Part shown: positions 31,166-38,504 of the stretch, piece after piece
Layout of the letters: each line of letters starts with the position of its first letter
Numbering within the stretch: the stretch's first letter is position 1
NCBI GenBank assembly: GCA_002898555.1
Contig: BEHR01000009.1
Coordinates: 6,975 to 70,974, forward strand
Reading direction: 5' to 3'
Source of the DNA: a bacterium HR15
GTDB taxonomy: Bacteria > Armatimonadota > Fimbriimonadia > Fimbriimonadales > GBS-DC
DNA: 64,000 nt
Notes under the pieces: generated by a model
What the model was told of the DNA's origin: nothing
What the model saw: only the letters and a program-made list of their open reading frames with translations
Databases searched by the model: none
Position numbers and translations under genes: made by a program

Positions 31166-31195
31166 TTGACAAAGCTGTCATCGATTGGGTATAAT
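31166..31195 (+). promoter_or_regulatory. sigma-70-type promoter of nosZ
   Basis: TTGACA (31166-31171), 18 nt spacer, TATAAT (31190-31195). An A/T-rich 'GAATTTTTCGAA' sits at UP-element distance. Confidence 0.75.
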
Positions 31196-31204
31196 GGATG
31201 GCGT

Positions 31205-31227
31205 CATTAGACCAAATCGGTCTAATG
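31205..31227 (+). promoter_or_regulatory. perfect 9-bp inverted repeat at the predicted 5' end of the nosZ transcript
   Basis: CATTAGACC-aaatc-GGTCTAATG, starting 10 nt after the -10 box. Confidence 0.5.
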
Positions 31228-31259
31228 AATTCGGAGACAGAGAGATGGGAGGAGATACG

Positions 31260-36300: not shown

Positions 36301-37250
36301 TTTTAGATGAAGCGACACGCTTCATGGCTCTGACCTCCTCACCAACAAGCGACGCACACCCTAACACCCCCACTAAAGGAGAGGGCAGCCCCCTACTGGC
36401 TAACAGTGAAGCATGGGGGCGATGGGGGCGGGTTTATTTGCTTGTTAGCAAAGAGGTGCGTGATGCGCGGCGCAACCGCTGGTTTCTGATGCTGATGGGT
36501 ATTTTTGTGGCACTCTCGCTGCTGCTGACCCTGTTCGGGTTAACGGGCATGGGGCAGAGTGGCGCATCGGGTTTCGGGCGCACCTTCGCCAGCCTGCTGA
36601 ACCTATCGCTGTTGATTGTACCGCTGATGGGGCTGCTGCTGGGCGCACTGAGCATTGCGGTGGAGCGCGATCAGCAAACGCTGCACACCTTGCTGGCGCA
36701 ACCGCTGACACCTGCGACCCTCGTGTTCGGCAAGTTTCTGGGCACGATGCTGACCCTGGGCGCGGCGGTGCTGATCGGCTTCGGCAGTAGCGGGCTGATC
36801 ATTTATATGTCAGGCGCGAATGTGCCGCTTGCGCCGTTCCTGGGGCAGCTGGGGCTAACCCTGCTGCTGGGCTGGAGCTGCCTCGCGCTGGGTTTGTTGG
36901 TCTCCGTGCTGGTGAAACGCGGCCCCACAGCGGTCGGCGTCGCCTTGTTGCTGTGGCTTTTCCTGACCTTTATTAGTGACTTGGGCATTATCGGCACAGC
37001 CATCGCGCTCCAACTACGGGCATCCACGCTGTTGTGGCTGACCCTGCTGAACCCGTTGCAAGTGTTCAAGGTAGCGGTCATCCAGCTGATGGAGGGCAAT
37101 CTGGAGGTGCTTGGCTCGGCAGGGTTGTATGCTCGCGATGTGCTGGGCGACGCTGTGCTACCCATCTTATCAGGTATACTTGTGGCATGGGTTGCAGTTC
37201 CGTTTCTGCTCGCTCTGGGCTGGTTCACCCGCAGGGGGGCAATCGAATGA
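33381..37250 (+). CDS. nosDFY: fused NosB-like membrane module / NosD beta-helix / NosF ABC ATPase / NosY ABC-2 permease (single 1289-aa ORF)
   Basis: No in-frame stop from 33381 to 37250.
- Codons 1-195: 4-TM module.
- Codons about 215-610: NosD motifs, including '[22 protein letters not shown]'.
- One TM: '[16 protein letters not shown]'.
- Codons 678-about 900: 'GANGAGKTT', '[11 protein letters not shown]', '[11 protein letters not shown]'.
- Codons about 1017-1289: NosY-like '[15 protein letters not shown]' plus 6 TM.
SD GGAAGGAGG lies before the ATG. Confidence 0.85.
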   Translation: [1289 protein letters not shown]

Positions 37251-37687
37251 GAGGGTTCTGGCTGCTGGTGCTGCTCGCAGGCTGCCAGCAAGCCGCTCCG
37301 CCACCTACTATTCGCTATGGCGAGGATGCCTGCGCTCACTGCCGCATGATTATCAATGAAGCGCCCTACGCCTGTGCCGTTGAAACGCAGCAGGGCGAGA
37401 TCCGCAAGTACGATGACTTCAATTGCATGTTTTTAGACAGTGGGCAGAGCAAACCCAAACGCTACTGGGTGCATGATTACAACAAGCCTGACCGATGGCT
37501 CGACGGCGTCAAAGCCTACTATGTGCGGGCAGAGGAGCTGCAAACACCGATGGGTAGCCGCACGCTGGCTGTGGCTACACGCGAGGAAGCGGAGCACAAA
37601 GCGCAATTGCTCAAGGGCAAAGTGTTCACTTTCGAACAGATTCGGCAGGAGTTCCTGCCGAGCAAACAACCAACAGACAGGAGGTAG
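37247..37687 (+). CDS. nosL: NosL copper-chaperone lipoprotein
   Basis: ATGA overlap with the preceding ORF. Lipobox 'LLVLLAGC'. 'CAHCRMII' and 'YDDFNCMF' are typical of NosL. Confidence 0.88.
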   Translation: MRGFWLLVLLAGCQQAAPPPTIRYGEDACAHCRMIINEAPYACAVETQQGEIRKYDDFNCMFLDSGQSKPKRYWVHDYNKPDRWLDGVKAYYVRAEELQTPMGSRTLAVATREEAEHKAQLLKGKVFTFEQIRQEFLPSKQPTDRR

Positions 37688-37694
37688 ATCGCTT

Positions 37695-38504
37695 ATGCGC
37701 AAATGGACGCTTGTATCGACGGGTTTTGTCATCGCGCTGACGCTCTGGAGTTGCAAAGGTGGTCAGCAGCAACAGACACAGCAACCGCCCTCTCAACCCC
37801 CTGCAACCACAACGGAGCATCCGACCACTCCACCGGCGGGACCACCACCTGCCCCGACCGATGGCACGGCGACCATCTATGGCATGGTCAAGTTCGAGGG
37901 CACACCCCCGAAACCGGAGCCGATCAACATGGGCGCGGAGCTGCAGTGTGCTGCCATGCATCCCCAACCGCCCACCCGTGAAGACCTGGTAGTGAACAAT
38001 AATGGCACGCTGCGCTGGACGCTGGTCTATGTCAAATCGGGGCTGCCTGCCAACTATAAGCCGACCGTCCCGTCCGAACCCGTGGTGCTGGATCAACAGG
38101 GCTGCGTGTTTCACCCCCATGTGGTGGGGGTTGTAGCAGGGCAGAAAATCATCTTTCGCAACAGCGACCCTGTGCTGCATAACACGCGCGGCACCTCCAA
38201 GAACAACGGCTCCTTCAACTACACACAGCCCCAGAAAGGGCAGGAGAGCGAGCATGTCTTCAAAAATCCCGAACTGGGGATCAAGACGGTGTGCGATGTG
38301 CATCCATGGATGCTGAGTTATATCCATGTGCTGCCGCACCCCTTCTTTGCCGTGACGGGCGAGGACGGGAGCTTCACCATCAAGGGGTTGCCACCGGGCA
38401 AGTACACGCTGGAGTTCGTGCATGAGAAGCTCGGTACCAAGACCGTCGAGGTGGAGGCGAAGGCAAATGCGGTGACGCAGACGGAGGTCGTGTTTAAACA
38501 ATAA
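37695..38504 (+). CDS. cupredoxin-like (amicyanin-type Cu site) lipoprotein with C-terminal CarboxypepD_reg-like domain
   Basis: SD GGAGG. Lipobox 'LTLWSC' and a Pro/Thr/Gln-rich linker. Candidate type-1 Cu ligands are 'VLHNTRG' and 'CDVHPWM' (C-x2-H-P-x-M, as in amicyanin). The C-terminus reads 'DGSFTIKGLPPGKYTLEF'. Confidence 0.65.
   Translation: MRKWTLVSTGFVIALTLWSCKGGQQQQTQQPPSQPPATTTEHPTTPPAGPPPAPTDGTATIYGMVKFEGTPPKPEPINMGAELQCAAMHPQPPTREDLVVNNNGTLRWTLVYVKSGLPANYKPTVPSEPVVLDQQGCVFHPHVVGVVAGQKIIFRNSDPVLHNTRGTSKNNGSFNYTQPQKGQESEHVFKNPELGIKTVCDVHPWMLSYIHVLPHPFFAVTGEDGSFTIKGLPPGKYTLEFVHEKLGTKTVEVEAKANAVTQTEVVFKQ

Follow-up and report, generated by a model that had tools for sequence, protein, structure and literature searches.

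A predicted blue-copper lipoprotein as candidate electron carrier in a minimal clade II nos cluster of a Fimbriimonadales-like bacterium

How does a nitrous oxide (N2O) reductase obtain electrons when the genes that usually supply them are missing from its cluster? This question is raised by positions 31166-38504 of a 64,000-nucleotide stretch of DNA (the window) from bacterium HR15 (GenBank assembly GCA_002898555.1, contig BEHR01000009.1). Four plus-strand genes lie there between carA and aspS: nosZ, a nosB-nosD-nosF-nosY fusion, nosL, and a gene for a cupredoxin lipoprotein. The window belongs to contig C9 of a 3.04-Mb genome, distributed over 72 contigs and 98.3% complete, whose host is a Fimbriimonadales-like member of the Armatimonadota. 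Biological removal of the greenhouse gas N2O is known only through NosZ. Most important among the consumers that do not denitrify are clade II organisms, and the only electron route to a clade II NosZ known to us is that of Wolinella, which employs NosGH and cytochromes. An earlier note, made from the DNA sequence of the window, described the cluster as lacking all known electron-input genes and concluded that it either relies on unlinked genes or uses a different route. We consider it fairly probable that the locus is a clade II N2O-respiration module whose nos-encoded cupredoxin is the dedicated carrier, fed by unlinked complexes. Both halves of that alternative then apply: quinol oxidation is unlinked (contigs C3 and C21), and the carrier is apparently the cupredoxin, which the note itself had listed in a cluster said to have no electron-input gene and which is the best candidate for one. 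In what follows, C-numbers are contigs of the window's own genome (G000), L-numbers are loci, G002 is another genome, and f33 and f16 are Armatimonadota families.

Profile searches and open reading frames (ORFs) agree with that note on the order of the genes and on carA and aspS as their neighbours. nosZ (31260-33242, plus strand), with a GGAGG ribosome-binding site before its ATG, encodes a clade II, Sec-type N2O reductase of 660 aa. The protein scores 838.5 bits against the Sec-dependent profile TIGR04246 (cut-off 625) and only 377 bits against the Tat-type TIGR04244, below the cut-off of the latter. Its N-terminus (MRSWMRYLIAGVV... / MRSWMRYLIAGVVLIVFVAIVVIV...) is hydrophobic and of apparent Sec type, with no twin arginine. 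Together with the motif LNHYIGM in the NosB part of the fusion directly downstream, these features bear out the original assignment to clade II, which had been based on the missing Tat motif and the adjacent NosB-like module. In an alignment to the solved enzyme 1QNI, all seven CuZ histidines and the CuA ligands are kept; the aligned motifs are DTHHP, NNHG, SPHG, PLHT, IGHL, EPHY, and THGF, and the CuA set is H, C-x3-C-x3-H-x2-M. A NosZ with a fused cytochrome c domain, as in Wolinella, was ruled out, the protein having no such domain at its C-terminus. The closest NosZ sequences come from metagenome-assembled genomes of Armatimonadota and Fimbriimonadales (73-95% identity), followed by Omnitrophota and Calditrichota (67%) and by KSB1, Ignavibacteria, and many Phycisphaerae (57-65%). 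Within the Armatimonadota, nosZ was found in only 10 of 301 sampled genomes.

The genes nosG, nosH, nosC1, nosC2, nosR, and nosX are indeed absent from the cluster, and none of the real ORFs at 20-50 kb of the window contains CxxCH; this interval covers the nos cluster and about 10 kb around it. NosH is NapH-like (PMC13685413). Across the 98.3%-complete genome, the profiles PF12801 (Fer4_5, the NapH/NosH/NosR type), TIGR00397 (the NapG/NosG type), and PF04205 (FMN_bind, NosR) each returned zero matches; controls for the first two matched in E. coli and in other genomes, and the PF04205 control matched as well. Thus, the possibility left by the earlier note, that homologues of nosR, nosG, or nosH reside elsewhere, found no support in this genome. 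A single ApbE gene, of the NosX family, has no link to nos: it lies at C1:200200-201021, with an epimerase gene on one side and a DivIC gene on the other.

This absence is genuine but normal for this branch of NosZ. The order Z-B-D-F-Y-L was found in 80 of 80 related loci, distributed over five or more phyla, and the minimal layout is therefore not the exception it had first seemed. When these loci were scanned for carrier candidates by CxxCH and copper motifs, most were found to have one small cytochrome c beside the cluster. In Phycisphaerae, this cytochrome c is a diheme protein of about 300 aa whose gene immediately precedes nosZ; in Calditrichota, KSB1, and Ignavibacteria, it is a monoheme protein of about 145 aa whose gene comes straight after nosL. 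That same position after nosL is occupied by the cupredoxin in the window, in L006, L013, and L015, in family f33, and in the metagenome contig L133. Bacillota clusters are similarly compact, with the order nosC-nosZ-nosB-nosDYF (bioRxiv 10.1101/2024.05.17.594689); in a 2026 review, the clade II pattern is nevertheless still nosHG together with cytochromes (PMC13685413).

What, then, is the protein that stands in this position? The cupredoxin gene (37695-38504, plus strand) begins with an ATG 7 nt past the nosL stop, preceded by GGAGG, and encodes a lipoprotein of 269 aa with a lipobox LWSC, a Q/P/T-rich tether, and a predicted type-1 copper site. The Pfam cupredoxin profiles PF00127 and PF13473 gave no match to it even at E ≤10, NCBIfam returned no cupredoxin call, and the sole Pfam match was CarboxypepD_reg, at the C-terminus. 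Its original label is nevertheless borne out by fold and ligands, through a structure model and a fold search, and it is the Pfam support that is missing. An AlphaFold (AF2) model built from 32 homologues reached a pLDDT of 89.6, with low confidence in the tether of about 38 residues. For the central domain, the best Foldseek matches were amicyanin, plastocyanin, pseudoazurin, and the cupredoxin domain of NirK, with E-values of 1e-5 to 1e-4 and a probability of 1.00 for the first three. Residues H162, N163, C200, H203, and M206 are invariant in the 32 sequences and make up the type-1 ligand set His-Asn...Cys-x2-His-x2-Met; the loop CDVHPWM is spaced as in amicyanin, and we take its counterpart there to be CTPHPFM. 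The model suggests an amicyanin-like cupredoxin inserted in a beta-sandwich of the CarboxypepD_reg type, and the product of the last gene is best described as a putative membrane-tethered type-1 blue-copper protein, its copper binding being a prediction. Databases contain more than 5,900 proteins of this family, many of which JGI names 'plastocyanin'; the family is otherwise uncharacterised. The nos-linked copy is the only one in this genome.

The neighbourhoods in which this family occurs, drawn from genome searches plus one metagenome scan, give a further line of evidence. In the sister family f33, a copy immediately follows nosL in six of six nosZ-positive genomes, one of these clusters being divided between two contigs, and five of the six genomes hold a second copy elsewhere; nosZ-negative genomes with a match hold one each. 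Twelve non-nos copies were fetched from f33 and f16, and each has coxII-coxI immediately downstream (L104-L115), often with SCO1 just upstream, and in L109 the order is ActA-ActB-ActC, cupredoxin, CoxII, CoxI. Genome G002 has a divergent cupredoxin with the same ligands and architecture (CHIHGLM) directly upstream of nosZ. A tree of the family separates the cox-linked clade from the nos-linked copies, which fall into two clades with good support; L120 was labelled 'cox' in that tree without a check of its context, and its placement is not used as evidence. The metagenome scan yielded 80 loci, 60 of them evaluable: coxII/coxI lie just downstream in 27 of the 60, and one (L133) is nos-linked. 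Other metagenome members (L134-L212) adjoin ctaA/ctaB or large multihaem cytochromes. The family is consistently encoded beside enzymes with CuA electron entry, and the combination of cupredoxin and CarboxypepD_reg domains looks like the mark of a widespread, unannotated family of respiratory carriers.

Candidate reductants for such a carrier are present elsewhere in the genome, which contains 29 ORFs with CxxCH. On contig C3 (C3:86000-104000, L086), there is a complete ActABCDEF cluster for Alternative Complex III (ACIII); SCO1 and genes for a caa3 oxidase come next on that strand. The complex includes the pentaheme ActA, the Fe-S protein ActB, the NrfD-like ActC, ActD, and the monoheme ActE, all recognised by profiles, whereas ActF has no Pfam match and owes its assignment to its place in the cluster. 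ActC is the only gene of the NrfD family (PF03916) in the genome. Contig C21 (C21:7410-9316, L123) carries a Rieske gene and then a cytochrome b with a C-terminal monoheme cytochrome c domain, that is, a b-c fusion. A second oxidase, of the aa3 type, is encoded on contig C15, and its CoxII has no cytochrome c domain. Other small candidates for a carrier are a plastocyanin-like protein matching PF00127 (C11:5831-6328) and a weak monoheme cytochrome c (C1:166129-166662).

These elements suggest the following route. NosZ would be exported by Sec, and its copper centres would be built by the one-polypeptide NosB-NosD-NosF-NosY machine together with the lipoprotein NosL. Menaquinol would be oxidised by the unlinked ACIII (C3), by the Rieske/cytochrome b-c complex (C21), or by both, and one or both would reduce the membrane-tethered cupredoxin. 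This protein would then serve as the dedicated periplasmic carrier to CuA of NosZ, in place of a small cytochrome c, with CuZ as the next centre, and NosGH, NosC1/C2, and NosR would not be needed. The cupredoxin is proposed for this role because it replaces a cytochrome c in position, because its paralogues stand beside CuA enzymes, and because it has the canonical type-1 ligands; from these features, the missing GH- and R-type genes, and the presence of both complexes, we infer the electron transfers themselves.

Each leg of this route resembles a known one. Auracyanin, a membrane-tethered type-1 blue-copper protein of Chloroflexus and Roseiflexus, receives electrons from ACIII (PMC7439408, PMC10873879), and we liken it to the present protein by description. 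ACIII is the sole NrfD-type complex here, and in L109 a family member lies between ACIII and cox genes; the present case differs in that the proposed terminal acceptor is N2O reductase. According to PMC13685413 and PMC11409646, which cite Hein et al. 2017, a Rieske/bc complex is one of the sources of electrons for clade II N2O respiration in Wolinella. A pool of cytochrome c550 and pseudoazurin supplies clade I NosZ, and in Paracoccus pseudoazurin, a small blue-copper protein, likewise carries electrons between a quinol-oxidising complex and the CuA of NosZ (PMC5987163). Pseudoazurin is soluble and serves several reductases. The protein described here, in contrast, has a lipid anchor, a long tether, and a beta-sandwich besides its cupredoxin domain; its gene is part of the nos operon, and by sequence it falls in a different family, without a match to the Pfam cupredoxin profiles. 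As far as we know, pseudoazurin is not part of a nos operon.

Several observations weigh against a dedicated carrier. Searches of the genomes of L012 (whose NosZ is 95% identical), L007, L008, L010, and L011 yielded no member of the family; another donor must therefore serve NosZ there, and the cupredoxin is at most one among several possible donors. In L011, a monoheme cytochrome c lies next to nosL on the opposite strand, and in L012 a convergent alcohol-dehydrogenase-like gene (L012:6062-6856) comes right after nosL. Given the near identity of NosZ in L012, the carrier gene must have been gained or lost very recently. The cupredoxin is thus an optional, replaceable carrier. There are also two candidate reductants for it, ACIII and the Rieske/b-c complex, and its co-expression with nosZ is not assured, since a strong hairpin resembling an intrinsic terminator (33256-33290, plus strand; 10-bp stem with 9 G-C pairs, then ATTTTTT) separates nosZ from the fusion and the genes behind it. 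This hairpin may serve a high ratio of NosZ to accessory proteins. The linkage to CuA enzymes, moreover, fits a role in CuA assembly as well. The cupredoxin-fold lipoprotein would in that case be a copper-delivery factor acting with NosL, comparable to PCuAC or SCO, and the donor to NosZ would be an unlinked small cytochrome c or the plastocyanin-like protein of C11. Such a role agrees with a gene that directly follows nosL, with paralogues that adjoin the CuA-containing CoxII and often have SCO1 as their neighbour, with the assembly-type context of the members beside the haem A/O synthesis genes ctaA and ctaB, with close relatives such as L012 that manage without the protein, and with the other candidate carriers on C11 and C1. 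The copper site itself points the other way: it has the canonical redox type-1 ligand set of amicyanin, without variation in 32 sequences, whereas the CuA chaperones known to us rely on Met/His or CxxxC sites. Electron carriers are also what the fold search matched best, and delivery already has its proteins, with SCO1 in the cox loci and NosL and NosDFY here. We therefore regard copper delivery as an unlikely function.

A second difficulty is that the single cupredoxin of this genome may serve the C15 oxidase too, or instead. If it were a general carrier mainly for this aa3-type enzyme, its place at the end of the nos cluster would be accidental and N2O reduction would depend on other unlinked carriers. 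The family is single-copy in the genome, there is an oxidase with no cytochrome c domain on its CoxII, and in related families the cox-linked paralogue precedes such oxidases. An accidental position is nevertheless hard to reconcile with nos linkage in at least three arrangements or lineages (the window's clade with L015, f33, and G002) and in one metagenome contig, with nos-linked copies that form clades of their own apart from the cox-linked ones, or with the tight translational coupling to nosL. Family f33 is especially telling, as the nos-linked copy is found in six of six nosZ-positive genomes, five of which have a second copy, and nosZ-negative genomes with a match have a single one. We find a general carrier at an accidental site improbable. 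More improbable still is that the cluster is a recently acquired or decaying island without a role in respiration, with a NosZ that is inactive or active in detoxification only and has no dedicated quinol dehydrogenase. It is true that the carA and aspS flanks are syntenic with the nos locus of no relative, that nosGH and nosR were not found in the genome, and that nirK was not found in it either (nirS, nor, and nar/nap were not searched, so that non-denitrifier status is not claimed). All genes are intact, however, including the 1289-codon fusion ORF; the catalytic ligands are conserved; promoter and leader are kept in relatives at 84-92% NosZ identity; the base composition of the cluster matches that of the genome; the same architecture recurs in 80 loci; and general quinol:acceptor oxidoreductases are available. 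A respiratory module with the cupredoxin as its dedicated carrier remains the reading that we favour.

The machinery that would assemble NosZ is encoded in the two middle genes. The fusion ORF (33381-37250, plus strand) encodes 1289 aa with no internal stop. Its NosB module (aa 1-235, 33381-34085) has four membrane helices and a fifth, with LNHYIGM in a predicted periplasmic loop. The NosD module (aa 236-660, 34086-35360) is a periplasmic beta-helix that scores 402 bits against TIGR04247 and matches PF05048. It is followed by the NosF module (about aa 670-1000, 35388-36380), an ABC ATPase with PF00005 over residues 699-837 and a C-terminal extension common to relatives (segment X), and by the NosY module (aa 1010-1289, 36408-37250), an ABC-2 permease matching PF12679 with about six membrane helices in a hydropathy scan. 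All four modules are on the plus strand. In the predicted topology, each stands on its expected side: the fifth helix of NosB takes the place of the former NosD signal peptide, and a single helix at about aa 628-645, after NosD, brings the chain back to the cytoplasm before NosF. The next gene, nosL (37247-37687, plus strand), whose ATG overlaps the TGA of the fusion as ATGA, encodes a copper-chaperone lipoprotein of 146 aa with PF05573 and a lipobox LLAGC.

NosB was also considered as a hidden quinol dehydrogenase, which is unlikely, as the module has no conserved membrane His pairs, Cys, or Fe-S motifs. LNHYIGM, published as the NosB motif along with NosB-NosL fusions (PMC9697520), is present in 76 of 76 loci with a NosB match. 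Of its His, Cys, and Met residues, none but H68 and M72 is conserved, and the conserved residues of the module sit in two periplasmic loops. The lack of a haem or Fe-S motif, the covalent B-D-F-Y arrangement, and the published NosB-NosL fusions argue that NosB is part of the copper-insertion machine and not a site of electron input. Stoichiometry is a further point of interest. The published maturation complex is NosD1F2Y2, with NosD:NosF:NosY at 1:2:2 (PMC13685413), and the same modules with the same predicted sites (NosD in the periplasm, NosF in the cytoplasm, NosY in the membrane) are known from the NosDF2Y2 complex of Pseudomonas stutzeri. That complex has one NosD, two NosF, and two NosY (PMC13685413), whereas the single chain described here imposes 1:1:1:1 unless it is cleaved, with NosB covalently added.

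Across phyla, the nos accessory genes form a graded series of fusions, B|D|F|Y, B|DF|Y, BDF|Y, B|DFY, and BDFY. The full fusion is found in the window, L006, L007, L008, L012, L013, and L015; B is separate from a D-F-Y fusion in L010 and L011; family f33 has B-D-F fused and Y separate; Calditrichota and KSB1 have D-F fused; and most Phycisphaerae keep all four separate. A database search returned about 25 sequence clusters for the full fusion and about seven for D-F-Y, all annotated just as NosD. B-D-F fusions occupy many clusters, number in the hundreds (Planctomycetes, Poribacteria, and Omnitrophica), and are likewise annotated only as NosD.

The carrier and the fusion are the new elements of this locus: a nos-encoded blue-copper carrier and a covalent B-D-F-Y machine. 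Tentatively, they may be joined in a single account, possible although as yet short of probable. In it, the nos operons of several Armatimonadota lineages have swapped cytochrome c for a dedicated blue-copper paralogue of an oxidase-serving family, the periplasmic leg from ACIII or the bc complex to N2O would be copper-only, NosB would be a copper-insertion subunit, and the machine would work with two NosD per transporter dimer.

Among known systems, the minimal clade II clusters of Bacillota and Bacteroidota (nosC-nosZ-nosB-nosD-nosY/F, with or without nosL) come closest, sharing a Sec-type NosZ, NosB beside NosDFY, the absence of nosR, nosX, and nosGH, and one small periplasmic carrier gene at the edge (bioRxiv 10.1101/2024.05.17.594689; PMC9697520). 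They differ in that the carrier here is a type-1 copper lipoprotein and not a cytochrome c, and in that B, D, F, and Y are one polypeptide. The nosZ-B-D-G-C1-C2-H-F-Y-L cluster of Wolinella succinogenes is alike in its clade II NosZ, NosB, and NosDFYL, whereas the NosGH menaquinol dehydrogenase, NosC1/C2, and the cytochrome c domain of NosZ have no counterpart in the present locus. This locus and its 80 relatives represent a large clade II branch without the NosGH module, which depends on one small carrier and general respiratory complexes, the Armatimonadota carrier being a blue-copper lipoprotein. They provide a candidate donor to clade II NosZ that can be tested directly, they suggest what a widespread, unannotated family encoded beside CuA enzymes may do, and they bring a naturally occurring gene fusion to bear on the old question of what NosB does. 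Furthermore, in genome-based predictions of N2O reduction, missing nosGH, nosC, or nosR should not be taken to mean a non-functional system.

The regulatory signals around the operon agree with its being in use. Position 31166, the first base of the reported feature, is the -35 box of a nosZ promoter, TTGACA-18 nt-TATAAT (31166-31195, plus strand), with 12 of 12 consensus positions, which is kept in L013 and L008. Upstream of it, two direct repeats GCGAATTTT(T)CGAACACCCT (31046-31064 and 31138-31157, plus strand), 92-93 nt apart, are candidate regulator sites; the promoter-proximal copy is kept in L013 and L008, where its flanks have diverged. The 5' leader contains a perfect 10-nt inverted repeat, TCATTAGACC-N5-GGTCTAATGA (31204-31228, plus strand), which could be an operator-like site or an RNA hairpin and whose core TCATTAG/CTAATGA is also kept in both relatives. 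Promoter and leader are conserved across relatives with 84-92% NosZ identity. A conserved repeat, promoter, and palindrome core amid diverged DNA suggests a dedicated regulator. Because the NosZ ligands are kept, promoter and leader are conserved, and the starts are tightly coupled (the ATGA overlap and the 7-nt gap), the operon, which is real and complete, is probably functional.

Upstream, carA (29842-30966) lies on the minus strand. Downstream, the earlier note had placed an aspS promoter region 6 nt past the end of the cluster, where a promoter scan gave no promoter-like site; the true start of aspS is probably about 50 nt past the cupredoxin stop, since the NCBIfam alignment begins at residue 27 of the longest ORF. 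The flanking carA and aspS genes were syntenic with none of the nos loci of the relatives compared, which indicates that the cluster moves between genomic sites, although no insertion site can be deduced. Farther out, between an M23-like gene and carA, a 341-aa ORF (28760-29785) has no match in Pfam or NCBIfam. Elsewhere in the genome, contig C32 carries a cytochrome P460 gene (C32:17967-18467; L127:968-1468, minus strand), matching PF16694 at E 1.5e-32. The cytochrome P460 family oxidises hydroxylamine to N2O, and this protein could be an internal source of the substrate of NosZ.

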